A program made the translations under genes and the position numbers. A stretch of DNA of 32,000 nucleotides from Methanopyrus kandleri AV19 (GTDB lineage Archaea > JAADCQ01 > Methanopyri > Methanopyrales > Methanopyraceae), in the NCBI RefSeq assembly GCF_000007185.1, contig NC_003551.1, positions 720,001-752,000 of the forward strand, in the 5' to 3' direction. The notes beneath the pieces are model-generated. The model made no database searches. It was not told the DNA's origin and worked only from the letters and a program-made list of their open reading frames with translations. Positions 653 through 18,969 of this stretch are shown here, one piece after another; positions within the stretch are counted from its first letter, which is position 1; the number at the start of each line of letters is the position of its first letter.

Positions 653-730
653 GGGCCGGCAGCTCAGTCTGGCTAGAGCGCGGGACTTTTAATCCCGTGG
701 TCCCGGGTTCAAATCCCGGCCGGCCCACCA
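653..730 (+). tRNA. tRNA-Lys (anticodon UUU) with genomically encoded 3' CCA and C at position 8
   Basis: Cloverleaf folded by hand. Acceptor GGGCCGG/CCGGCCC; D stem GCTC/GAGC; anticodon stem CGGGA/TCCCG with loop CTTTTAA; T stem CCGGG/CCCGG with loop TTCAAAT; discriminator A, then CCA. No intron. Confidence 0.95.
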
Positions 731-4770: not shown

Positions 4771-5484
4771 GCGGAGTGAGGGCAATCCGGCTCCGCGAAC
4801 GCCGATCAACACGTCACCGGGTGTTGGGAGCTCGAGGACGGGACAGAACACATCGCTGCCACCCGCGATCGTCCCTTCGTACTCCACCCAAGTAAAGAAC
4901 GCGTATCCCGGCTCCGGAGTTTCGTACTCGAACTTTTTGGGGATGGGTTTGTCGGTCCGGATTACCTCAAGTGGTTCGATGTCTTCTGGGAGACCCGGCC
5001 GATATCTCGGCGTCCTAGGTGGTCGGCGGATAGGGTTGGCCCCAATCCGCACTTCCTGTGGCACGATCGTCGGTTCATACCTCTCGAGAACGGCGTTGAT
5101 GACGGGTACGAACTTCTCTTCTAGGAGTAGTGTGTCGATCATCTCACATGCTACCACATCGGCGTTCACATCCACATCCCGCGCGTCCCCTACTACTACC
5201 TCCCACTCCACGTCGTGCGGGACGTGTTTCCTGAGGTTCTTCTCGAGAAGTCGGGCTCGTTTGGGATTCTTTTCTACGGCGATCACGCGCTCGGCGCCGG
5301 CGTGGGCTGCAACCACCGATAAAGGTCCTGTGCCGGCTCCAAGGTCCGCGAAAGTGTCCTCTGCGACTTCCGCTACCATCGAGGTGAAGACGAAAACGCG
5401 CCTTACGTCACGGAGCAGGTCGAGCTGGTAGGAGTCTACCAACAGCTTGAACTCACCTACTGGAGTTCTTATGGTTTTAATCAT
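4738..5484 (-). CDS. Class I SAM-dependent methyltransferase (archaeal predicted RNA methylase type)
   Basis: 248 aa with the SAM-binding motif I FADLGAGTGPLSVVAA, then RVIAVEKNP and VVGDARD. Its ATG overlaps the upstream NYN gene stop as ATGA (5481-5484). Confidence 0.75.
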   Translation of the reverse strand: MIKTIRTPVGEFKLLVDSYQLDLLRDVRRVFVFTSMVAEVAEDTFADLGAGTGPLSVVAAHAGAERVIAVEKNPKRARLLEKNLRKHVPHDVEWEVVVGDARDVDVNADVVACEMIDTLLLEEKFVPVINAVLERYEPTIVPQEVRIGANPIRRPPRTPRYRPGLPEDIEPLEVIRTDKPIPKKFEYETPEPGYAFFTWVEYEGTIAGGSDVFCPVLELPTPGDVLIGVRGAGLPSLRSYTPEHQDHT

Positions 5485-6020
5485 TCGTCACTCACCACAT
5501 CCTTAGCTTCTTCGGGTTTCTCTTCTTTCCCCTCTGATTCCCGCTCCTTGCGCGGTTTAAGCTTGATTACATAGTCTGCCGCATTTTGTAGTGCTGTACT
5601 AAATCCTGGATCTGCTCCTATTACAATGGTGACCTTACCCTGCTCCTTCGCCTTAGCTATAATTGGAAGAAAGTCAGTGTCACGCGTCATTAGTGCGATT
5701 GCGTCGACGTTATCACTGTAAATAAGTTCCATTGCCTCAACCGCTAAGTACACATCAACGTCTCCCGGAATCACTCTAGGAACAAAACCCTGATTGGCTA
5801 CAGCTTCAATAAGTTTGTCCGAAGCGTATTGGTTCAGGAACGCTAATCCTACTCTAATATTACCCAATTCTTCAACTAATTCTCTAACCTCCTTCAAACT
5901 GACATCGAACTCTTTACGGAGCATATTCGGTCCGTCAATCAACATTGCAATGTCAAGATTGCCCCGCTTAGCTTTTCTCTTGATTACACCACTCATATAA
6001 TCTTTGACCGTATCGAGCAA
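5481..6020 (-). CDS. NYN/LabA-like (DUF88) predicted ribonuclease domain protein
   Basis: 179 aa: IAMLIDGPNM...VDVYLAVEAMELIY...DAIALMTRDTDFLPIIAKAKEQGKVTIVIGA, the acidic-residue pattern of NYN/LabA domains. TTG start at 6020, preceded by GGAGGTG 8 nt upstream. G+C is markedly low. Confidence 0.75.
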   Translation of the reverse strand: MLDTVKDYMSGVIKRKAKRGNLDIAMLIDGPNMLRKEFDVSLKEVRELVEELGNIRVGLAFLNQYASDKLIEAVANQGFVPRVIPGDVDVYLAVEAMELIYSDNVDAIALMTRDTDFLPIIAKAKEQGKVTIVIGADPGFSTALQNAADYVIKLKPRKERESEGKEEKPEEAKDVVSDE

Positions 6021-8210: not shown

Positions 8211-9026
8211 TTACCGCCCGAATCTTCTTTCACGCTTCTGGAATTCACGGATCGCGCGCAGCAAGTCAATCTTCCGAAACTCAGGCCAGTACACGTCCAC
8301 AAAGTACAGCTCGGAGTACGCGGAGTACCAGAGCAGGAAGTTGCTGAGTCTTTCCTCACCACTGGTTCTTATGATCAGCTCCGGATCCGGGAGATCTCCC
8401 ACGTATACGTACTTTCTGAACGTTCCTTCATCGATCTCATCGGGGTCGAGCCGGCCGACTTTCACGTCGTGCGCTATCTCGCGAACAGCGTCGATAATCT
8501 CCTGCCTCCCACCGTAGGCTACGGCGACGTTCAGGAACCTGTCCTTGTACTCCTTAGTGGCGCGTTCGGCCTTTTTGATAGCTCTGCGGACACGGGTCGG
8601 GAGCAGATGGAGCCTCCCGACGGCACGGACGGCGACCTTTCGTCGATGGATCCGCTCGCTCTCCGCGAGTGCCTTGAACCGCTCTTCCATGAGGTCGAAG
8701 AGCCGCTTGAGCTCCTCCTTCGGTCGGTTCAGGTTCTCGGTAGACAGCGCGTACACAGTAACAGCCTTAACACCTAAGTCGAGACACCACTCCAGCACGT
8801 CCTCGAGTTTGTCAGCTCCGTACCGATGACCTTCCCACGGTTCCAATCCCAGCTCTCGGGCGAACCTTCTGTTTCCGTCCATAATGATGCCTACATGCTC
8901 AGGGACTCTGCCTTCCTTCACCTTCTCCTCAAGTATCCTCTCGTACATCTTATATACCGGCTTAAGCGAGACGCGAACGGCCTGCCGCAGCACGCGGCGA
9001 GAGTTCACCCCGGTGACGCGTTTCAA
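8211..9026 (-). CDS. uppS: cis-prenyltransferase (undecaprenyl/di-trans,poly-cis polyprenyl diphosphate synthase)
   Basis: 271 aa: HVGIIMDGNRRFA, TVYALSTENLNRP, IRTSGEERLSNFLLWYSAYSELYF. These are canonical UppS motifs. Confidence 0.9.
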   Translation of the reverse strand: MKRVTGVNSRRVLRQAVRVSLKPVYKMYERILEEKVKEGRVPEHVGIIMDGNRRFARELGLEPWEGHRYGADKLEDVLEWCLDLGVKAVTVYALSTENLNRPKEELKRLFDLMEERFKALAESERIHRRKVAVRAVGRLHLLPTRVRRAIKKAERATKEYKDRFLNVAVAYGGRQEIIDAVREIAHDVKVGRLDPDEIDEGTFRKYVYVGDLPDPELIIRTSGEERLSNFLLWYSAYSELYFVDVYWPEFRKIDLLRAIREFQKRERRFGR

Positions 9027-9563: not shown

Positions 9564-9626
9564 CCCGACATGCCCGATGAAGATCACGGCCTTCGCCTGA
9601 GACGTGACGAGATCCACCCGAGCTGA

Positions 9627-10787
9627 GGGGACACTCCCATCCTCCGAAAGACGGAGCTCGATGACCCGCGACTCGCGCACGTACTCCGTGAGCGCGTAGC
9701 CGACTATCCCTCACTGCTGGCCGCCCTCCGAACTCCGGTTCGGCGCTACACGCTCCGGGTTAACACTCTGAAAGCGGACCTGGAGGATGTCGTCGAATGT
9801 CTCGCCTCGGATTTTCCCGATCGGGAGGTTAGAGAGTCTCCTTACTCCGAGTACGCGGTCGAGATCGAGGTGAAAGGACCGTACCCCGTGGAGGGGAACC
9901 ACCACGTCGTAGTCGCCGACAAGTTCGCGGCCGAGAGCGTCTACGTGGGGGCGGATCTCTACGCTCCCGGGGTGGTGCAAGCGGACCCCGACATCCGTAG
10001 AGGCGACCGCGTGACCGTAGTCTCGGAACGCGGGCACCCGGTCGCATCCGGTGAGGCGGCGCTCCAGGGGCGTGAGATGGAAAAGCGGGACCGAGGTACT
10101 GCCGTCCGCGTGGATCGCCCCACCTTTAGTGCCCCAAAAGTCCGTGAGACCGAAGCGTACCGGCGAGGTTGGGTGTACTCCCAGGGTCTGCCCTCCATCT
10201 TGGCCGTAGAGGCCCTGTCTCCGGAGCCCGGCGAAACCGTGGTCGACCTCTGTGCGGCTCCGGGTGGGAAGTGTTCCCACGTGGCTCAGATCACCGGTCC
10301 GGAGTCCAAGATAGTAGCTATCGACCGCTCCGCACCACGACTCGAACGGATGGAGGCTCGACTACGTCGCCTGGGTATCGACTGGGTCGAGACCGTGCAC
10401 GGGGACGCCAGGAAGGTCGTCAGGAGGCTGCGGGGAACGGCAGACGTTGTCCTCGTTGACCCGCCTTGCACCGCCTTAGGTGTCAGGCCGAAACTCTGGG
10501 TCGAGGCGACTTACGAGGAGGCGCTCGGGCTACCGTCTTACCAGTATTCGTTGCTCAGAGCCGGATACGAAGTCCTTAAGGAGGGCGGAAGACTCCTATA
10601 CTCCACGTGCACTCTCACGCCCACCGAAAACGAACTCGTGGTCGAACGTGCGATACGGGAGCTAAACCTTGAGCCCGAGACGCCGGTGCTTCGACCCGCC
10701 AGACGCTCAGGTCCGGGCGTTGTCTTCCTCCCCCATCGTGCGGATGTCCCTGGATTCTTCTACGCAGTACTCGTTAAGGAAGGATGA
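9627..10787 (+). CDS. NOL1/NOP2/Sun-family RNA (cytosine-C5) methyltransferase with PUA domain; start codon unresolved
   Basis: DLCAAPGGKCSH (SAM motif), VLVDPPCTALG (motif IV PC) and LLYSTCTLTPTENE (motif VI TC). A PUA-like VVVADKFAAESVYVGADLYAPGV lies upstream. The frame is open from 9627 and encodes ...SLLAALRTPVRRYTLRVNTLKADLEDVVECL, but the first ATG/GTG/TTG is GTG 9870. The coordinate 9627 is the first codon after an in-frame TGA, not a proven start. Confidence 0.8.
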   Translation, partial: GDTPILRKTELDDPRLAHVLRERVADYPSLLAALRTPVRRYTLRVNTLKADLEDVVECLASDFPDREVRESPYSEYAVEIEVKGPYPVEGNHHVVVADKFAAESVYVGADLYAPGVVQADPDIRRGDRVTVVSERGHPVASGEAALQGREMEKRDRGTAVRVDRPTFSAPKVRETEAYRRGWVYSQGLPSILAVEALSPEPGETVVDLCAAPGGKCSHVAQITGPESKIVAIDRSAPRLERMEARLRRLGIDWVETVHGDARKVVRRLRGTADVVLVDPPCTALGVRPKLWVEATYEEALGLPSYQYSLLRAGYEVLKEGGRLLYSTCTLTPTENELVVERAIRELNLEPETPVLRPARRSGPGVVFLPHRADVPGFFYAVLVKEG

Positions 10788-10800
10788 GGGAGTAGACGTC

Positions 10801-11811
10801 GTGTCCGACGGCGTCGTGAAACGACGGGCAATACCGGCGATGGCGGCGGGTGTAGCCGTTGTCCTCATCATGATTTGGTCGTTCGATCCTCGTAAGGTCC
10901 TCACCGTAATCGCGAGAACGGAGCCGCGGCTGTTCGCGCTCGCCGTCTGTATCCAACTGGTTGACTTACTACTGTGGGCGCTGCGATGGCACCTGGTGTT
11001 GGTACGAGGCGGGGTAAAGGCACCGTTCCGCCTGGTCTTCGCGGTCAATAACGTCTCGATGCTCGTGAACAACATCACCCCGAGCGCCAGGAGCGGCGGT
11101 GAGCCACTCCGTGTGTACCTACTGGCTCGTATGACCAGGTACCGGGCGCGTGATATCGCCTCCTCCGTCGTTATCGATAGGGTTCTCGACTACTTTCCCC
11201 TGACGTTACTACTACTGTTGAGCGCCTTCCTGATCGCGGGAAGTGGAGGAAGAGGCGGGATTCTCGTCATCCTACTCGGTGGCGTGTCTTTTCTTACAGC
11301 CGCTTTGATACTGTCGCTTTGGTTCTTAGCGAGTGAGCGATACGTGCACAGGGTCGCTCGAGGGGTTCTCCGGCTCCTGTCCCGTGTATCTCGTCGCGTA
11401 CGCGCACGCCGCCTGTGGGAGGAGCTTGATGAGTGGGTGGAAAGGTTCGTGAAGCAGCTTCGAGAGCTCCTCCAGGATCGTCTCACGCTGATTCAGGGCA
11501 CCCTGTTATCGGCTGCAGTGTGGGGGTGCGAGATCCTCAGGACATACGTCGTGTTTTTATCGTTGGGACGCGAGGTGCCCCTACCCGTTATCGTGGTGTC
11601 GTTTACGGTCTCGATGTTCGCGGGTGTTCTCCCGTTACTTCCCGGTGGACTCGGACTGGTGGAGATATCCACTGCATCGGTTTACAGGCTGTGGGGGATC
11701 GACCCGGGAACCAGCGCTGCGGTTGCACTATTAGACCGGCTGATCTCGTACTGGATGGTGAACGCGATCGGTGTGATCAGTCTTTTACGCATCTCACGGC
11801 GAGAAAGATAA
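10801..11811 (+). CDS. Polytopic membrane protein, UPF0104/flippase-like (LPG-synthase TM-region) family
   Basis: At least 8 hydrophobic segments, and NNITPSARSGGEPLRVYLL, which matches the conserved loop of the UPF0104 family as I remember it. The start is uncertain: ATG 10744, GTG 10801, GTG 10816 and ATG 10840 are all in frame. Confidence 0.65.
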   Translation: MSDGVVKRRAIPAMAAGVAVVLIMIWSFDPRKVLTVIARTEPRLFALAVCIQLVDLLLWALRWHLVLVRGGVKAPFRLVFAVNNVSMLVNNITPSARSGGEPLRVYLLARMTRYRARDIASSVVIDRVLDYFPLTLLLLLSAFLIAGSGGRGGILVILLGGVSFLTAALILSLWFLASERYVHRVARGVLRLLSRVSRRVRARRLWEELDEWVERFVKQLRELLQDRLTLIQGTLLSAAVWGCEILRTYVVFLSLGREVPLPVIVVSFTVSMFAGVLPLLPGGLGLVEISTASVYRLWGIDPGTSAAVALLDRLISYWMVNAIGVISLLRISRRER

Positions 11812-11817
11812 GGAGGT

Positions 11818-12183
11818 GTGATGTCCTTGCCATACGAGCTCGGGAAAGTCGAGACGATTATAAAGCCGGATGACGGTGGGGTGATCTCCGCCGATATAAA
11901 AGTGTTGGCTACAGTGAGCTTGCACCGCGGCCCTACGATCATCGCCGAAGTCGATCCCAGGATAGCCGGAGAGATCGAGGAAGACGACCACGTCATCGTC
12001 GACTTACCCTTGATACCTTCTCCGAATGAGTCCAGACCACAACCCAGGATAGTGAAGATTATTAAGGATGAGAAGCTCGTGAACCGCGTGAAGGCGGAAA
12101 TCGAGAAGGAACCCGAGACCATGGTTCCACCCGTGATTCCCGGGCAGCCGGCCACACCTCCACCCGAGGACATGTTCGGCTGA
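11818..12183 (+). CDS. Hypothetical 120-aa protein with Pro-rich C-terminus
   Basis: The strong SD aaGGAGGTGtg sits directly upstream of GTGATG at 11818-11823. The protein is acidic (…AEVDPRIAGEIEEDDHVIVDLPL…PPVIPGQPATPPPEDMFG). I recognise no family. Confidence 0.6.
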   Translation: MMSLPYELGKVETIIKPDDGGVISADIKVLATVSLHRGPTIIAEVDPRIAGEIEEDDHVIVDLPLIPSPNESRPQPRIVKIIKDEKLVNRVKAEIEKEPETMVPPVIPGQPATPPPEDMFG

Positions 12184-12206
12184 TAGCCGCCTGGGGAGGC
12201 AGATGA

Positions 12207-14036
12207 TTGATTTTTAAAAAGAGAAAAGGTGGTAAGCGTGAACGGCCCGAGATAGATCTCAAGCTTAAACCTCCGGAGGAAGGTGAGGGAGCTCCGAAGC
12301 TCAAGCTCCCCAAGCCGGAGGGGAGGCCCGGCGAGTCGAAAGGCGCAGAGGCCGTCCCCAAATTAAAGCTTAAACCCCCGAAACCTAGTGAAAAACCTCC
12401 TAGTGGAGAAGAGGAGGAAAAGAAGAAAGAAGAGCGCCCACCGGCTGAAATTAAGCCTCCTAAGCCACCGGAAGAGCGTACCGCTCCCTCGAATTTGGAA
12501 GCTGAACTAGAGCGGCTGAAAGCCGAGAATAAAAAGCTTAGAGAAGAATTAGACGAATGGCGCAACAAAGCCAAGAGTGCGATGGGAGAGAGGGATAGAC
12601 TAAGGTCCGAAATTAAAAGACTTAAGGAAGAACTTGAGAAGCAAGAGAAGGAACTTGATAAGTACATCAAAATTTCGAAGCAACTGAAAGAAAAGTTAGA
12701 AAAAGCTAAAAGAGAATCGGAGGAACTTAAAGAAAAAGCGGAAGAGTACCGTGAACGGTACGAAAAGATTGCTGGGAAATACAATGAGCTTAAGTCGAAG
12801 CTGGAGGATCTCTCGGACCAAAATCGTCGTCTCGCAGAGAATCTAAAGAAACTCAAAGAGAAGTATAATGAAATTAAGGAGGAGAGAGATAGGCTAAAGG
12901 AAGAAACGAAAGAAGTGGGGAAACTCAAGGACCAGTTAGCTAAGCTTCAAAGTAAACTTAAGGAGGTTAAAAGCGAAAGAGACGACCTCGCCAACGAAGT
13001 CGAAGCCCTGAGGAATGAGAACGAAAAACTTAGGAAGAAAATAGACAAACTGAAGTCTGAGCTGAGTAATCTCCAGAAGAAGCTCAAAGATAGGGAGAAG
13101 AAATTGGAAAAGGCTCGCCAGCATATCGGGAAGCTCAGGGAGGAAATTAAGAGAAGGGATGAGGAGATTAGGAAGCTTAGGAAGGCACAAAGTAAGTTGA
13201 AGGATGAAATTAAAAGGTATGAGGAAGGGAAGCGACTTCTGGTTCCACCCGAGACTGAAATGGCGATAGCAAAGGTGAAGGGTAGTATTGTAATAGGAAA
13301 GAATTCAATGGTTAAGGCACTCCAAGAGGATGAGCCCATAGTAGTTAAGGAGGAAATTAATGTCAAAGATAATTCGCGAATTTACGGGACGATTGTGGCT
13401 AAAAACATCTCAATTGGGAGTAATGTAAAGATTTACGGGAATGTAATTTGTGAAAACAAGTTGGAAATCGGAGAAGGCTCTACGGTAAAAGGCCATGTAA
13501 TTTCTATTAATTCACTGAAGACGAGTGCGGATGTGATAATAGAAGGGAGTATGGTCAGCGGAGACGACATCTCGCTCGCTAACAACGTGGAGGTCAAGGA
13601 GGTTCTGATCACGCCAGGGTCGGTCAAGGCCAGTCAAGGCCTCAGCGTTGCGGCGGTGCTGTGTAATGACTTCGAATCAGCCGGTTCCATAGAGGCGGAT
13701 TATATTCTAGCGGATGAGAGGGTCAAGCTGGGTGACGACAGCTTCGTCAAGACGGTGATCGTTCGAGAGGGACCGGTGGAGCAAGGAGTGAACTCATGCG
13801 TCTACTACGGCTCGTTGTCCATCAAGGGTCGGAACCCGAAGCTCTACATAAACACCGAACCGTTCGACGATCCCGTCGCTAACAGGGTATTCCGCAAGAC
13901 GATTTCCAACGTGGAGCGCCTCGGGCCGTTTCATCTAGCGAAGTCGGAGAAAGACGCTAAGTTCGTGTTGAACAGGGTCACCAAGATGGACATCGCGGAG
14001 ATCGTGAAGGAACTGCGAGAATCTCTGAAGGTCTAA
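12207..14036 (+). CDS. 609-aa protein: Lys/Pro-repeat N-terminus, long coiled coil, and a bactofilin-like beta-helix C-terminal region
   Basis: TTG start with GGGGAGG 6 nt upstream. Residues ~17-60 carry PKLKL(K)P(P)KP repeats. Residues ~95-340 are an uninterrupted heptad-like K/E/L-rich sequence (LEAELERLKAENKKLREELDEW...). Residues ~350-530 have a repeating pattern, SRIYGTIVAKNISIGSNVKIYGNVICENKLEIGEGSTVKGHVIS...IIEGSMVSGDDISLANNVEVK, typical of bactofilin/DUF583-type beta-helices. Confidence 0.8.
   Translation: MIFKKRKGGKRERPEIDLKLKPPEEGEGAPKLKLPKPEGRPGESKGAEAVPKLKLKPPKPSEKPPSGEEEEKKKEERPPAEIKPPKPPEERTAPSNLEAELERLKAENKKLREELDEWRNKAKSAMGERDRLRSEIKRLKEELEKQEKELDKYIKISKQLKEKLEKAKRESEELKEKAEEYRERYEKIAGKYNELKSKLEDLSDQNRRLAENLKKLKEKYNEIKEERDRLKEETKEVGKLKDQLAKLQSKLKEVKSERDDLANEVEALRNENEKLRKKIDKLKSELSNLQKKLKDREKKLEKARQHIGKLREEIKRRDEEIRKLRKAQSKLKDEIKRYEEGKRLLVPPETEMAIAKVKGSIVIGKNSMVKALQEDEPIVVKEEINVKDNSRIYGTIVAKNISIGSNVKIYGNVICENKLEIGEGSTVKGHVISINSLKTSADVIIEGSMVSGDDISLANNVEVKEVLITPGSVKASQGLSVAAVLCNDFESAGSIEADYILADERVKLGDDSFVKTVIVREGPVEQGVNSCVYYGSLSIKGRNPKLYINTEPFDDPVANRVFRKTISNVERLGPFHLAKSEKDAKFVLNRVTKMDIAEIVKELRESLKV
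12255..12390 (+). repeat. Three imperfect coding repeats (aagct[tc]aa[ag]c... encoding PKLKLKPPKP-like units)
   Basis: Units lie at about 12259-12280 (LKLKPPEE), 12295-12321 (PKLKLPKPEG) and 12355-12386 (PKLKLKPPKPSE). Confidence 0.6.
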
Positions 14037-15109
14037 CCCAGTAGCCCTCGCTCATGTCCCACGTACCAGTGTAGCGACGACCCTCGGACCGTGCGAACGA
14101 ACCCTTCCCCTCTCACCTCCCATTTATCGTTGGCTTTCCGAACTTCGCACAGAACCCTCTCCGTGGGTTCAGGACGGACTGTGATTCTATTGTCTTCAGG
14201 CAGGTAACAGACGTAGTACTTCTCACCTTGCCCTGACCATATTTCGCCACCGTTCAGTTCCAGTTTGAGTCGCTTGCCAACCACTAGAGTGTAAACGTCG
14301 AGACGGTCTACAATGCTGTTGCCGACAACTAGACTACGCTCAGGAACGCGCGAGTCGCTGATGTGAGCTCCCGCACCTACTACGGACCATCTCCCGATTT
14401 CACAGCGCGAGAGGCGTGCATTCATGCCCACGAAACACCGCTCCTCGATTTTACACCCATGGATCTCTGCTCCATCTCCGACGAAAGTCACCGGGCCGAG
14501 TTCCGAGCGTTCGATTTCACAGTGTGAGGACACGGAAACCCGTTTGTGTAACACTGAGCGACGGATCGAAGAGAAGTTCGAGATCATGGCGCCTCCGTGG
14601 ACTGTGACGTGCTCCAGCTCCACGAACGCCGCCACTCGGGCGTTGCCGCGTATTCTGGATTCCCTCACGGACACGAGGTGAGGGTGTTTGAAGGCGGGGC
14701 ACAACCAGGCTTCCGAAGAGTCTCGTACCTTGAACCACCGGTTAGTGGGTGACCTCTTCGGGTCGACTACGACGGTTAGATCTAGGTAGAAAGGCTTTCC
14801 GACGCGTTCCTCCAGGAGTTCACGGGCCCGCTTGCCGATCTCTCGGATGGTGCTGCCCTCGCGACCGATGAGGGTAGCCTTCAGCGATTCCTTATGGACC
14901 ACGAGTTCTGCTCGGGCGTAGACGAGTTCAGGACGTCCGCGGCCGGGCCGGATCTCCTTTACCTCGATTCCCACTTCCCGTGGGAGTGATCCGTGGAGTA
15001 CTTCGCGTAAGGCCGAGCGCAGGGCTCTCTCGACGGTGCGTTCACTCGGTAGGTGCGATGTAGTACTCGTAGTTCGGTCGTCTCTGGGTTCGGATTGCGG
15101 GCTGCTCAC
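14033..15109 (-). CDS. Fusion of an Era-type KH domain and a left-handed beta-helix (hexapeptide-repeat) domain
   Basis: The N-terminal part, ERALRSALREVLHGSLPREVGIEVKEIRPGRGRPELVYARAELVVHKESLKATLIGREGSTIREIGKRARELLEERVGKPFYLDLTVVV, follows the C-terminal KH domain of Era GTPases. The middle, FVGDGAEIHGCKIEERCFVGMNARLSRCEIGRWSVVGAGAHISDSRVPERSLVVGNSIV, is hexapeptide-repeat LbH. The only in-frame starts are GTG 15163 and GTG 15109; I chose 15109 because it overlaps less. Confidence 0.7.
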   Translation of the reverse strand: MSSPQSEPRDDRTTSTTSHLPSERTVERALRSALREVLHGSLPREVGIEVKEIRPGRGRPELVYARAELVVHKESLKATLIGREGSTIREIGKRARELLEERVGKPFYLDLTVVVDPKRSPTNRWFKVRDSSEAWLCPAFKHPHLVSVRESRIRGNARVAAFVELEHVTVHGGAMISNFSSIRRSVLHKRVSVSSHCEIERSELGPVTFVGDGAEIHGCKIEERCFVGMNARLSRCEIGRWSVVGAGAHISDSRVPERSLVVGNSIVDRLDVYTLVVGKRLKLELNGGEIWSGQGEKYYVCYLPEDNRITVRPEPTERVLCEVRKANDKWEVRGEGFVRTVRGSSLHWYVGHERGLLG

Positions 15110-15533
15110 AGACGTACACCACCAGACAGTCCTGAGGTGCCTCGACGTACCGAACGTTCCCACTGCGAGTCGTCACGGCGGCCAGTGGATCACCTTTCCT
15201 GAGCCGATCTCCTACGTCGGCTATCGGTGTGACTACGTAACCTTCAACCGGTATCTGGTACACCCGGTCCCCGGGCTTCAAGAAGACGAGTGATCGCCGA
15301 TCTACCGGTTCTATGACGACGTGTCGGGTGACCTTGGCCTCCGGTACGTCGAAGACTGACCTGGCCTCCTCGTACACCACCTGTTCGTAGAATATCGGCT
15401 CGTCTAACTCTTCGGCGATCTTCTCCGCTAGCTCACGCGAGCGTACGATCACCTCGAACTCGGGGTCCGTGAGCAAGATCTTGCCGCTCTCTGGAACTTC
15501 GTCGGTCTCCACGTATATCCTGGGAAGTGCCAA
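15042..15533 (-). CDS. Archaeal conserved protein with a biotinyl/lipoyl-like hybrid-barrel C-terminal domain (DUF2118-like)
   Basis: 163 aa: GDRVYQIPVEGYVVTPIADVGDRLRKGDPLAAVTTRSGNVRYVEAP resembles the single-hybrid-motif fold. It starts 2 nt after the GGPP synthase stop. Confidence 0.55.
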   Translation of the reverse strand: MALPRIYVETDEVPESGKILLTDPEFEVIVRSRELAEKIAEELDEPIFYEQVVYEEARSVFDVPEAKVTRHVVIEPVDRRSLVFLKPGDRVYQIPVEGYVVTPIADVGDRLRKGDPLAAVTTRSGNVRYVEAPQDCLVVYVCEQPAIRTQRRPNYEYYIAPTE

Positions 15534-15535
15534 CT

Positions 15536-16510
15536 TCAGAACTCCCTCTCTACAACGAAATCCGCCAACTTTTCTAGGAACTCCCGATGCTCGTTCTCGG
15601 GGAGCTCGCGCAGCGCAGCCTTAGCGCGATCGGCGTACTCTCGGGCCCGCTTTTTAGCGTAATCTATCGCACCGAGATCTTCGAGTATCTGAATAACCTC
15701 GCGAACGTCCTCGCGTGAAGCATCCTCGTTCCCGAGGACCGAAAGTATGCGCTCCCGCTGCTCCTCATCGGCGAGCTCCAGGCCCTTGATCACGATCAGC
15801 GTCTTCTTCCCCTCGACGATGTCGCTGCCCACGGGCTTACCGAGTTCGGACTCGTCTCCGACAAGGTCGAGGACGTCGTCCTGTATCTGGAACGCGATCC
15901 CCAAGTTCTCGCCGTACTCCCGAAGCGCTTCCAGTTGCTCGCGGTTCGCCCCGGCTTTAAGCCCGCCTACGACGCACGATGTCCGTATGAGCGCTGCCGT
16001 TTTCTTCCGGATCATTTCGAGGAACTCATCCTCGGTGACTTCAGTCCTGTTCTCGAACCCGATGTCCATGGCTTGGCCCTCACAGATCTCCGTGCAGGCG
16101 CGGGCGAGTTCTTTCACTGCCTCTACGTCTCCGCCTTCCGCCGCCACTTCGAAGGCTTTGGAGAACAGGGTGTCTCCCGCCAGTATGGCTACCGGTACTC
16201 CCCACTTCACGTGTACCGCCGGGACTCCGCGTCGTTCGTCGTCTTCGTCCATGATGTCGTCGTGAATTAGAGTGAACGTATGAATCAGCTCGACCGCGAC
16301 CGCTTCAGGGAGTACGTCCTCTTCCGATCCACCTAACATGAGACACGATTTGATGGCGAGGAGGGGTCGGATTCGCTTACCTCCCGCTTCGATTAGGTGC
16401 CAACACGCATCGTAGAGGTCCTCTGGGCCTCCTCTGGGTAGTACCTCCTCAATCTTGGCGTCGACGAGCTCGCGTGCACGGTTCAGCTCTTTCAGTATCT
16501 CACTCCGCAT
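15536..16510 (-). CDS. idsA: Short-chain (E)-isoprenyl diphosphate synthase (geranylgeranyl diphosphate synthase)
   Basis: 324 aa with the first Asp-rich motif LIHDDIMDEDDERRG and the second IAFQIQDDVLD. Confidence 0.9.
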   Translation of the reverse strand: MRSEILKELNRARELVDAKIEEVLPRGGPEDLYDACWHLIEAGGKRIRPLLAIKSCLMLGGSEEDVLPEAVAVELIHTFTLIHDDIMDEDDERRGVPAVHVKWGVPVAILAGDTLFSKAFEVAAEGGDVEAVKELARACTEICEGQAMDIGFENRTEVTEDEFLEMIRKKTAALIRTSCVVGGLKAGANREQLEALREYGENLGIAFQIQDDVLDLVGDESELGKPVGSDIVEGKKTLIVIKGLELADEEQRERILSVLGNEDASREDVREVIQILEDLGAIDYAKKRAREYADRAKAALRELPENEHREFLEKLADFVVEREF

Positions 16511-16522
16511 GGAATCGTCCCC

Positions 16523-17884
16523 TTATAACGGCAGACTTAGCTTCGTGCCGTCGAACATTATGAATACGTCTCGGTTCACCTCGTAACCCTCCTGAGTGGC
16601 CAGTTCGGCGTACGCGGCCAGCATATCCGGGTCACCGTGTGCCGGGACGATGAACTCCGGCTGGAGCATTCTGAGCATTAGGCGATGGTCTTCACGACCC
16701 GCGTGCCCTGACACGTGCACGTCCTTGAACATTTTCACACCCTTCAGCCGGAGCTTGGTGTCCAACACGTAGCGGTTGGCTCGATTTATAGGGGACGGAA
16801 TTGTGGACGACGAGAACACTACGCTATCTTCTTCGGTCAGTCGGTACGGGAGCTCGCCGTCAACGATCCGCGGTAACACGGCGCCCGGCTCTCCCTGGTG
16901 TCCCGTGACGATCAGTAGGTAATCCTCCTTCTCCTTGTTCGCCCGTTCGAGTCCCCGCCGAATAGTCTCGGGGCGATCGTAAATCCTGGCACCCGCGGGG
17001 AGGTTCAGGAGACCGAGCTCTTCGGCGATCCTCCCGTATTTGCCCATGGATCTTCCGGCGAGGATCACTTTCCTGCCTAATCTGTCCGCAGTGTCTGCGA
17101 TCGCCTGTATCCGTTCTATGTGTGACGAGAACGTTGTAACGATAATCCCCTCACTTTCCTCGTCGGCGAATCTGAGCACGTCGTTTACCATTTCCCTAGC
17201 TACAGATTCGGAAGGTGTCTTAATTTCTTCAGCGACCCTCAAACTCTCAGTAATGAGCAGTAACACACCTTCTTTGCCCAGCTGTTTGAGCCTTTTATAA
17301 TCCGGTTTGTATCCTATTATTTGATTATCATCGAACTTAAAATCGCACGCATATACTATTGCTCCGTAGGGAGTATGCAACACTGGTAGGACACAGCACG
17401 GTATGCTGTGGCTTATAGGGATAAATTCAAGTCGGAGTTTCGAGGAGATCTGCACTTCGTCTCCAGGCTCGACTGTGTACAAGTTAATCATGATATCTTC
17501 GGCTTCATCTGCGTACCTTATCTCATTCCTGAGGTCGGCTTTCACGAGTTCTATTGTGAACTCAGTTCCGAATACCGGGCACTTGTACTTAAAGAGCAGC
17601 TTAGGTACCGCTCCGATGTGGTCTAAGTGAGCGTGGGACAGGACCGCGGCGACCGTCTTGGAACGATGGGGGCGTAAGATAGGGTCGTTCGGTATCGCTT
17701 TCACTCTACGGAGTTCCCTGGCTGAGGCTTTCTGAAAATCTTTTTCGAAAACTAGTGATTTGTCCAGGGACATACCACAGTCGAAGATCACTATCTCCTC
17801 GTCCACGCGGACCGCGGTCATGTTTCGTCCACCGGCCTCGCCGTATCCCCCTACTGCGAACACCTCGACGGTCAACGGTTCCAC
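16523..17884 (-). CDS. rnj: Archaeal RNase J (metallo-beta-lactamase/beta-CASP 5'-3' exoribonuclease)
   Basis: 453 aa: FAVGGYGEAGGRNMTAVRV, MBL motif LSHAHLDHIG, and beta-CASP C-terminal motifs VSGHAGREDH and VPAHGD. An alternative TTG start at 17875 would give a TTGA overlap with the IDI2 stop. Confidence 0.85.
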   Translation of the reverse strand: MEPLTVEVFAVGGYGEAGGRNMTAVRVDEEIVIFDCGMSLDKSLVFEKDFQKASARELRRVKAIPNDPILRPHRSKTVAAVLSHAHLDHIGAVPKLLFKYKCPVFGTEFTIELVKADLRNEIRYADEAEDIMINLYTVEPGDEVQISSKLRLEFIPISHSIPCCVLPVLHTPYGAIVYACDFKFDDNQIIGYKPDYKRLKQLGKEGVLLLITESLRVAEEIKTPSESVAREMVNDVLRFADEESEGIIVTTFSSHIERIQAIADTADRLGRKVILAGRSMGKYGRIAEELGLLNLPAGARIYDRPETIRRGLERANKEKEDYLLIVTGHQGEPGAVLPRIVDGELPYRLTEEDSVVFSSSTIPSPINRANRYVLDTKLRLKGVKMFKDVHVSGHAGREDHRLMLRMLQPEFIVPAHGDPDMLAAYAELATQEGYEVNRDVFIMFDGTKLSLPL

Positions 17885-18969
17885 CCCGTTCGGCGATCAC
17901 CGGTGCAGACGAGATCGAGTGGGACTCCCCGGCACTCCAACCACTCACGCAGCTTCCCGTACACTACTATGGGGACGCTGCTCATTTCCTCCACGGACGA
18001 ACACCCCGCCATCAACATCGCGATCTTGACCTCGCGAGCGATCGACTTCAGGAAGCGGACGCAGCCTCTGACGCCCTCGGCCAGCACTTTACGGAGCACT
18101 GGTAAGGCCATTCCGGCGCAGTCCGCACCTAGAGCCAGAACCTTCGCGACGTCCATTCCCGTGCGCACGCCTCCGGTTCCAATTATCGCGAGATCGTTAC
18201 CGACGACGCTTCTGACTTCGAGTATTGAAGCCGCTGTGGGGACTCCCCAATCGGAGAACGCGTAGCCGAGTGGTATCTCACCGTGGGCCTTCGACCGGAC
18301 GGCTTCGACCACCGCCCAGTTGGTTCCACCGGCTCCACCGACGTCGATACCGTCCACGATATCCCGGACCAACTTGGCGTCTTCGGCTGACACGCCGGCT
18401 CCGGTCTCCTTCAAGACCACCGGCACGTCCACCGTTTCGCAGACTTCGGCGAGTACGTCCACGAACCCGGCGGCGTCCGCCTCACCTTCCAACTGAACCG
18501 CTTCCTGCAGCACGTTCACGTGAACGGCCAGCGCGTCTGCGTCCACCATATCGACGACTTCGAGCGCGAGGTCTGGGCCGTTCTCGCGCAGCTGCGGGAG
18601 CCCGATGTTGGCCAGCACCAGGCCGTCGGGGTACTCCTCCCGTACCACCTCGAACGTCCACCGCACCTCCGGATCCTTCACGCCGGCTCGCTGGCTTCCG
18701 ACCCCTATACCTATCTCAAGCTCGCGGGCTACTCGGGCGAGCTTCCGGTTGATCTCGCCGGTTTTAGGATGGCCTCCCGTCATTCCGGCGATTATCAGCG
18801 GGAAGGAGAGCCGCTTCCCGAAGAGTTCGATTTCCATGTCCACGTCGTCGAAGTCGAGCTCCGGGAGCGCCCGATGTACTATCTTCACGCAGTCGAACAG
18901 CGGGCTTTCCTCCGATTCGACGTCCTCCCAAATACACGCTAGCACGTGTTCCCACTTCCGTTCTCTCAT
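17872..18969 (-). CDS. fni: Type 2 isopentenyl-diphosphate delta-isomerase (FMN-dependent)
   Basis: Starts at ATG 18969 (MRERKWEHV...), 4 nt after the IPK stop. Motifs: FPLIIAGMTGG, GVGSQRAG, VVLKETGAGVS, IDVGGAGGTNWAVVE, IIGTGGVRTGMDVAKVLALGAD. Confidence 0.9.
   Translation of the reverse strand: MRERKWEHVLACIWEDVESEESPLFDCVKIVHRALPELDFDDVDMEIELFGKRLSFPLIIAGMTGGHPKTGEINRKLARVARELEIGIGVGSQRAGVKDPEVRWTFEVVREEYPDGLVLANIGLPQLRENGPDLALEVVDMVDADALAVHVNVLQEAVQLEGEADAAGFVDVLAEVCETVDVPVVLKETGAGVSAEDAKLVRDIVDGIDVGGAGGTNWAVVEAVRSKAHGEIPLGYAFSDWGVPTAASILEVRSVVGNDLAIIGTGGVRTGMDVAKVLALGADCAGMALPVLRKVLAEGVRGCVRFLKSIAREVKIAMLMAGCSSVEEMSSVPIVVYGKLREWLECRGVPLDLVCTGDRRTGWNR

Follow-up and report, generated by a model that had tools for sequence, protein, structure and literature searches.

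Does the archaeon Methanopyrus kandleri AV19, a rod-shaped hyperthermophile with a pseudomurein wall, encode a structural protein in which a bactofilin-like domain is carried on a long coiled coil? The question is raised by three adjacent genes in a 32,000-nucleotide stretch of its genome (contig NC_003551.1, positions 720,001 to 752,000), which is referred to here as the window and whose own numbering is used throughout. An earlier note on this DNA had proposed that these genes form an envelope or cytoskeletal module made up of a UPF0104 membrane protein, a small Pro-tailed protein and a coiled-coil/bactofilin-like giant. Our analysis centers on the giant, the product of gene 3. We read it as a cytoplasmic, non-enzymatic structural protein that is restricted to Methanopyri and serves as a membrane-associated scaffold or filament, and we give this reading a probability of about 0.5. 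The three genes and the Shine-Dalgarno-like site of gene 3 are as follows:

10801 to 11811, forward strand: gene 1, flippase-like (UPF0104 / LPG_synthase_TM) polytopic membrane protein, 336 aa, GTG start
11821 to 12183, forward strand: gene 2, orphan, 120 aa from the ATG or 121 aa from an in-frame GTG at 11818
12193 to 12199, forward strand: Shine-Dalgarno-like GGGGAGG, read from the sequence, ending 7 nt before the TTG at 12207
12207 to 14036, forward strand: gene 3, multidomain protein, 609 aa, TTG start

The layout agreed with the earlier note. All three genes lie on the same strand, with a gap of 6 nt between genes 1 and 2 (9 nt to the ATG used by the orthologs) and of 23 nt between genes 2 and 3, and both of the proposed Shine-Dalgarno sites were found. 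The site of gene 2 is AAGGAGGT, which ends 3 nt before the ATG at 11821; orthologs of gene 2 begin at Met and not at the position of the GTG at 11818. The start of gene 1 is ambiguous, as the identical protein has been called elsewhere from an ATG at 10744 (355 aa). The stop of gene 3 overlaps the end of a convergent gene by 4 nt. Compared with their orthologs in Methanopyri metagenome-assembled genomes (MAGs), genes 1-3 have an identity of 0.73-0.97 at codon position 2 and of 0.32-0.46 at position 3, and all three are retained in orthologs from several Methanopyri lineages. Judged by these comparisons, the genes are real and under purifying selection. Two open reading frames (ORFs) on the minus strand, 11682-12173 and 12062-12928, were rejected as shadows of the purine-rich coding strand. 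The GC content of the window is about 0.58-0.62, the composition of a Methanopyrus-type genome, and that of gene 3 is 0.47. This drop is due to the Lys/Glu-rich composition of gene 3. Horizontal transfer was ruled out as its source, given this composition and the synteny of the gene in all relatives.

Orthologs of gene 3 (614-700 aa) were found at 7 Methanopyri loci, with an overall identity of only 43-50%, and a GTDB-wide scan found the C-terminal region in only four Methanopyri-type species. The N-terminus has no signal peptide and no transmembrane segment, and the protein is therefore cytoplasmic. Its parts, all on the forward strand, are listed below:

12207 to 12227, forward strand: residues 1-7, MIFKKRK, candidate membrane-targeting sequence, M-I-F-[KR]-[KR] invariant
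12228 to 12491, forward strand: residues 8-95, Pro/Lys/Glu-rich, presumably extended linker (P 0.21, K+R 0.27, E+D 0.20)
12492 to 13241, forward strand: residues 96-345, coiled-coil rod of ~250 residues by heptad scan
13218 to 13262, forward strand: residues 338-352, YEEGKRLLVPPETEM, junction or cap between rod and beta-helix, near-invariant in the orthologs
13260 to 13634, forward strand: residues 352-476, triangular beta-solenoid of ~7 windings of 18 residues in the AlphaFold2 (AF2) model, bactofilin/halofilin-like
13635 to 14033, forward strand: residues 477-609, lineage-specific C-terminal domain with long beta-hairpins, then an alpha/beta tail

The repetitive C-terminal beta-helix that had been described from the sequence was borne out. 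The repeat string quoted for it, GTIVAKNISIGSNVKIYGNVICENKLEIGEGSTVKGHVIS...IEGSMVSGDDISL, is present at residues 394-457, and a beta-solenoid was predicted with high confidence (pLDDT, the predicted score in the local distance difference test, 92.7 and predicted template modeling score, pTM, 0.86 for the trimmed model), both AF2 models having been built on a two-sequence alignment. In the C-terminal tail the AF2 confidence drops to 42-72. The C-terminal domain nevertheless holds the most conserved stretch of the protein, the invariant motif LGDDSxVKTVIxxxGPVEQGxxSC. It has no relatives outside Methanopyri in the hidden Markov model (HMM) search, where the remote matches end at about profile position 145.

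Does this solenoid belong to the bactofilin superfamily, or is it a left-handed beta-helix (LbH) of hexapeptide repeats? The earlier note had stated that the pattern matches bactofilin (DUF583), which did not hold at the level of Pfam. The C-terminal region scored 24.9 bits with Bactofilin (PF04519; 21.8 bits at full length), below the cut-off of 27.9, with an alignment spanning model positions 8-97 of 98 (E 2.5e-5). The score for LbH_EIF2B was higher, at 30.2 bits, against a cut-off of 54. Because both scores are under threshold, the Pfam profiles cannot separate bactofilin from LbH. The scores of the orthologs were scattered. At locus L007, LbH_EIF2B reached 43.2 bits, Hexapep 30.3 (above its cut-off of 27) and Bactofilin 27.6; at locus L004, the best Pfam match was FapA (PF03961) with 23.5 bits, and Bactofilin, at 20.0, was again under its cut-off. 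When the family profile was compared with PDB sequences, the best matches were eIF2B-epsilon (E 4e-5), then GlmU and LpxD; the LbH proteins scored at most 26 bits, and no bactofilin was among the 60 matches listed. Direct alignment with hhalign to a fragment of the Thermus bactofilin (TtBac) was null (1.8%). Foldseek searches of the PDB with both models gave no significant match, and 6RIA was not among the top 50. All of this weighs against a bactofilin identity for the solenoid and, to that extent, against our reading of the protein.

A different explanation of the same results is that the repeat is a left-handed beta-helix, belonging either to a hexapeptide acyltransferase or to a non-catalytic LbH oligomerization module of the eIF2B-epsilon or dynactin p25/p27 type, and that the coil is a trimeric stalk. 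The top place of LbH_EIF2B in Pfam for both the window protein and the L007 ortholog, the Hexapep score of the latter and the PDB matches to eIF2B-epsilon, GlmU and LpxD would all fit, as would the related proteins P0011 and P0009, which match LpxD and YdcK better than 6RIA. A bona fide LbH gene, fused to a KH domain, also adjoins gene 3. We nonetheless regard this explanation as improbable. All LbH family scores of the window protein are under their cut-offs, including those for Hexapep (17.6 bits) and Hexapep_GlmU (11 bits, cut-off 23.3), and hexapeptide position i+4 holds large residues (L, M, I). The high-confidence model fits GlmU, LpxD and LpxA poorly, with a template modeling score (TM) of 0.21-0.24 and a root-mean-square deviation of ~12 Å, and gave a TM of 0.38-0.44 on right-handed helices; these values are relative ones only, Foldseek having returned no significant matches. 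A true LbH would match hundreds of LbH entries significantly in Foldseek, which the solenoid model did not. The coil also suggests dimers rather than trimers, as it has Asn at position a and Leu at position d.

The remote relatives of the family also speak against the LbH explanation. An HMM search of 1.8 billion representative proteins recovered one strong relative, a Methanopyri MAG protein, and 169 weak matches confined to the solenoid. LbH enzymes are far more abundant than bactofilins. Despite this, 64 of the 80 shorter remote matches were PF04519-positive (E <=1e-3), compared with 14 of 80 that were Hexapep-positive. Eleven remote matches have the architecture of the halofilin HalA, in which two solenoid subdomains are joined by a hydrophobic hairpin (library-wide E 1e-9 to 1e-5). 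Aligned with nine HalA-like proteins, the Methanopyri family gave an hhalign probability of 97.9% (E 3e-13, 104 columns), a figure inflated by the making of the HalA-like alignment from matches to the query profile. The control, an hhalign comparison with the genuine LbH family of the adjoining gene, gave 16% over 27 columns. The match to the HalA-like proteins falls onto their C-terminal subdomain, which in HalA is the one with BLAST-detectable homology to TtBac (PMC11459167). In the PDB, the HalA-like profile in turn matched the bactofilin 6RIA best (E 1.7e-6), with 2N3D at 4e-3.

From the profile comparisons and the predicted structure, we concluded that the gene 3 solenoid belongs to the bactofilin superfamily, at its halofilin-like periphery, and that it is not a PF04519 member by the Pfam criterion. 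By sequence the relationship to bactofilin is remote. It runs only via the intermediate HalA-like family, whose members were themselves selected among the matches of the query. The right-handedness of the solenoid is likewise something that we infer, which is a further point against our reading. At superfamily level the bactofilin-like reading of the earlier note did stand up, and the beta-helix was judged not to be an ordinary hexapeptide acyltransferase, given the TM of 0.21-0.24 to LbH enzymes and the hhalign values of 16% for LbH and 97.9% for the HalA-like proteins.

HalA has been described as a right-handed, bactofilin-like protein that affects cell shape in Haloferax, and it has been reported mainly from Halobacteria and Methanomicrobia, not from Methanopyri (PMC11459167). 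The gene 3 protein resembles HalA (Haloferax volcanii HVO_1610 family) in being archaeal and in its triangular beta-helix with 18-residue windings. Both have an hhhPxxT cap before the helix, and each has a hydrophobic or basic candidate membrane-binding element. The hhhPxxT motif of the junction is also placed ahead of the beta-helix in P0011 and in each of the two HalA-like subdomains. HalA, however, consists of two six-winding subdomains placed head-to-head through a hydrophobic alpha-hairpin (RNPxP in the matches) and has no long coiled coil, whereas the gene 3 protein has a single longer solenoid, no RNPxP hairpin, a 250-residue rod before the helix and a conserved domain after it. The two-subdomain architecture of HalA is thus absent from the gene 3 protein. 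With the canonical bactofilins (TtBac, 6RIA; Caulobacter BacA, 2N3D) it shares a non-enzymatic beta-solenoid, and its tip is a candidate membrane-targeting sequence (MTS) that resembles theirs. It is ~4-5 times larger than they are, its tip and helix are separated by the linker and the rod, and the ends of its helix are not free.

P0011, a Euryarchaeota MAG protein (RLG67904.1; locus L016, 72-1262), has a short coiled coil, an LxxPPxT junction and a PF04519-positive solenoid, which is followed by a Pro-rich linker and a CDC48_N-like double-psi barrel. Judging from its sequence, it is another undescribed bactofilin-like architecture. Since P0011 is the nearest protein outside Methanopyri to share the junction and has only ~35 coiled-coil residues, the long-rod fusion is lineage-specific. 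As a separate observation, IMG names three proteins of HalA architecture (P0057, P0075 and P0137) "predicted acyltransferase (DUF342 family)"; public annotation thus still assigns bactofilin-like solenoids wrongly to the LbH enzymes.

The remainder of the gene 3 protein bears on its possible role. At the N-terminal tip, all seven orthologs have M-I-F-[KR]-[KR] without exception. The experimentally defined membrane-targeting consensus of bactofilins is MFSKKKK, in which Met1, Phe2 and the lysines are critical (PMC12448750). The tip of gene 3, MIFKKRK, resembles this consensus but lies ~345 residues away from the beta-helix. Between tip and rod, the basic N-terminus with PKLKLKPPKP-type repeats that had been noted before was confirmed: the motifs are DLKLK (17-21), PKLKLPKP (30-37) and PKLKLKPPKP (51-60). 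The N-terminal linker spans 96-183 aa across the orthologs, and two or three [KR]LKL motifs are always retained.

The earlier note had described about 245 residues of uninterrupted coiled coil. The length held, at ~250 residues, but the heptad scan found one interruption: a first register runs over residues ~95-228, a single shift occurs near 229, and a second register continues to ~345. Most d positions hold Leu, and three a positions hold Asn. Asn at a with Leu at d is a dimer-like signature, and the rod is probably a parallel dimer. In all 7 orthologs, YEEG lies 221 residues from the W118 motif, with no indels in the rod, and GPVEQG lies 184 residues from YEEG, across the beta-domain. Since this spacing is fixed in proteins that are 43-50% identical and whose linker is variable, the length of the rod is under selection. 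Matches to coiled-coil profiles in Pfam, NCBIfam and PADLOC (SMC, Rad50, JetC, LmuB, crescentin, arcadin-4 and others) were dismissed as compositional, being far under their cut-offs. The likeness to Rod_CreS, for example, is of composition only, at 26 bits against a cut-off of 100. In its layout the protein is nonetheless like crescentin, FilP/Scy and the cyanobacterial coiled-coil-rich proteins (CCRPs), which have a long heptad rod with a stutter-like break and a non-helical head and tail. By this analogy, a rod with head and tail domains suggests a possible self-assembling scaffold. The crescentin, FilP/Scy and CCRP families have no beta-solenoid tail, unlike gene 3, and the likeness is one of layout.

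How might these parts work together? By analogy with the targeting peptides of bactofilins, the invariant Met-Ile-Phe-basic tip would bind the inner face of the membrane, and the tip together with the amphipathic KLKL motifs that the flexible linker carries would be suited to anionic archaeal membranes. The rigid rod of ~250 residues (~35 nm) would then be a fixed-length spacer, keeping the C-terminal module a defined distance away or reaching from one site to another. The beta-helix and the end domain may mediate self-association or docking. Combined, these parts would make a membrane-associated scaffold or filament, with the 120-aa product of gene 2 as the most plausible partner. Several properties of the protein sit poorly with this scheme. 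The putative MTS is ~345 residues from the beta-helix, unlike in bactofilins, and both ends of the helix continue into other domains. Bactofilin-style end-to-end polymerization is thus uncertain, and perhaps impossible, because the rod and the extra domain occupy both helix ends. Membrane binding, oligomeric state and polymerization are all predictions from sequence and model.

Another possible explanation is that the solenoid, whether of bactofilin, DUF342 or FapA type, serves for dimerization or docking only. The protein would then be a non-polymerizing tether or adaptor, for example at the pole or division site, and its position beside the flippase gene and the small gene would carry no meaning. 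We consider this less likely than a scaffold or filament, though it is the alternative that we take most seriously. The capped ends of the solenoid and the invariant length of the rod, which suits a spacer or tether, are both in its favor. AlphaFold-Multimer gave no filaments for HalA or HalB either (PMC11459167), and the co-directional run of genes contains unrelated housekeeping genes. FapA was the best Pfam match of the L004 ortholog, at 23.5 bits, and was also seen in P0001 and P0011 (22.9 bits in the latter); these scores, however, are under the FapA/DUF342 cut-off of 31, and FapA is not on the match list of the window protein. The conserved MTS-like tip speaks for association with the membrane, but would suit a tether just as well.

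The scaffold or filament reading can also be carried further. In its fullest form, the protein would be a so far unrecognized cytoskeletal element of Methanopyri: a membrane-anchored, dimeric ~35 nm rod whose halofilin-like helix and private domain form a submembrane lattice or filament, which with a PPPEDMFG adaptor organizes envelope growth, possibly together with the flippase. This extended version is doubtful, and we hold it to be a long shot.

The adaptor in that version is the product of gene 2, which is better conserved than genes 1 and 3. This protein has a beta-rich body of ~95 residues, a Pro-rich tail and an invariant C-terminal PPPEDMFG. Its homologs occur only in Methanopyri, with 70-97% identity, and Pfam, NCBIfam, PADLOC and PDB profiles yielded no family for it. 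Its sole PDB match, dynactin p27, was discarded as noise (E 0.02, per-domain E 15-55). The invariant PPPEDMFG end would be typical of a docking motif, and the gene 2 product is most plausibly the best candidate for a partner of the gene 3 protein.

The identification of gene 1 as a UPF0104 membrane protein was upheld. It is a UPF0104/MprF-type flippase-like protein with several transmembrane segments by hydropathy, and it scored far over the curated cut-offs of PF03706 (231 bits, cut-off 33.4; profile positions 2-302 of 302) and TIGR00374 (223.9 bits, cut-off 43.2). It is like the flippase domain of MprF in this full-length match, but it has no lysyl-PG synthase domain and falls below the substrate-specific equivalogs (MprF 32.7 bits against 600; GlcN-PG flippase 30.2 against 320; HpnL 54 against 196). 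Its orthologs in Methanopyri are 53-94% identical, and the next relatives at most 33%. In the MAG orthologs, the flippase frame extends 50 nt into the small gene (L004 7001-8369; L007 6992-8357). The C-terminus of gene 1 is therefore variable, as the frame ends 6-9 nt before gene 2 here and 50 nt inside it in the MAGs. Genes 1 and 2 are probably translationally coupled, to judge by this arrangement, and the 50-nt overlap in the MAGs argues for co-transcription, not shared function.

Do the three genes then form a dedicated envelope module, in which the scaffold positions or regulates the flippase-like transporter for export of lipid or pseudomurein precursors? The same order of flippase, small gene and giant was found at every Methanopyri locus recovered, and the gaps of 6 and 23 nt in the window and the 50-nt overlap in the MAGs are in keeping with such a unit. 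So are the isoprenoid genes around the locus (UPP synthase, GGPP synthase, isopentenyl phosphate kinase (IPK) and IDI2). Yet in these close relatives the collinearity extends over all 16 kb: UPP synthase, PhoH, metallophosphoesterase and a gene of the RsmB/PUA type precede gene 1, and the convergent genes beyond gene 3 (KH-LbH, DUF2118, GGPP synthase, beta-CASP, IDI2 and IPK) are collinear as well. The gene order therefore carries no specific signal. Homologs of genes 2 and 3 are limited to the class and PF03706 proteins are widespread, and a distant flippase homolog (32% identical) has unrelated neighbors and no bactofilin-like gene beside it. The three-gene co-conservation proposed earlier is thus present in Methanopyri but is uninformative, because genes 2 and 3 occur only there, where the neighborhood is collinear. 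Synteny inside one small class gives no evidence of functional linkage, which also counts against our reading.

The spacing of the genes does not define a three-gene unit either, since only 13 nt separate the end of the RsmB/PUA gene from gene 1 downstream of it, and the run of co-directional genes begins two unrelated genes earlier, with the metallophosphoesterase gene before RsmB/PUA. No AT-rich promoter-like element was found between 9223 and 11289. Given this and the 13-nt gap, the run looks like a five-gene mixed operon. AT-rich TATA-like strings within gene 2 (11856 and 11893) were rejected as promoters; the 11856 element is absent from L007, the sole ortholog stretch compared. By its position, gene 1 is co-transcribed with gene 3, and the link between them is one of position. 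In the literature searched, we found no link between Methanopyrus and bactofilins, no description of such a coiled-coil/bactofilin fusion and no precedent for the module. A dedicated module is therefore unlikely in our view. The earlier proposal of an envelope/cytoskeletal module with the flippase is unsupported by these data but not refuted, as the order is conserved only within collinear Methanopyri, and any part in pseudomurein or lipid export would be purely speculative.

Several other features of the window were recorded along the way. The RsmB/NOL1-type methyltransferase gene with a PUA domain (9570-10787, forward strand) has an in-frame TGA at 9624-9626, where the Methanopyri orthologs have Arg (IHPS*GD versus IHPSRGA). 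Coding is conserved on both sides of this TGA, and starting at the next canonical start, 9870, would cost ~80 conserved residues. The TGA could be a sequencing error or mark a pseudogene, read-through or an unusual start. In the product of the convergent gene at 14033-15163 (reverse strand), an Era-type KH domain is joined to a genuine hexapeptide LbH; the gene is present at all Methanopyri loci (311-330 aa). Its true start is probably later, since the listed 376-aa ORF overlaps the DUF2118 gene. The isoprenoid-lipid genes that flank the locus are UPP synthase and GGPP synthase (8211-9026 and 15536-16510, both on the reverse strand). Further out, the MAG loci L004 and L007 contain a beta-CASP RNase J-like gene, IDI2 (FMN_dh) and IPK. 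A tRNA-Lys (anticodon TTT; 653-730, forward strand) was the sole Rfam or ARAGORN match in the window. Other GC dips are found at 5001-6000 (0.50) and 17001-18000 (0.51), against a background of ~0.6.

It was not until 2024 that proteins of the bactofilin type were connected with archaeal morphology, through the halofilins, and archaeal cell-shape machinery is poorly known outside haloarchaea. The practical value of the present case is limited, as it concerns a single small class that is genetically intractable, and all that is said on function is inferred. It does illustrate how readily bactofilin-like repeats are confused with hexapeptide repeats, and the strictly fixed length of the rod is a hint of a molecular ruler or spacer. 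If our reading is true, the bactofilin superfamily would extend to Methanopyri in a new architecture of tip, linker, invariant-length coil, solenoid and private domain. Of the cytoskeletal principles that do not depend on nucleotides, the two main ones are the coiled-coil rod and the beta-helical polymer, and gene 3 would then bring both together in one protein.

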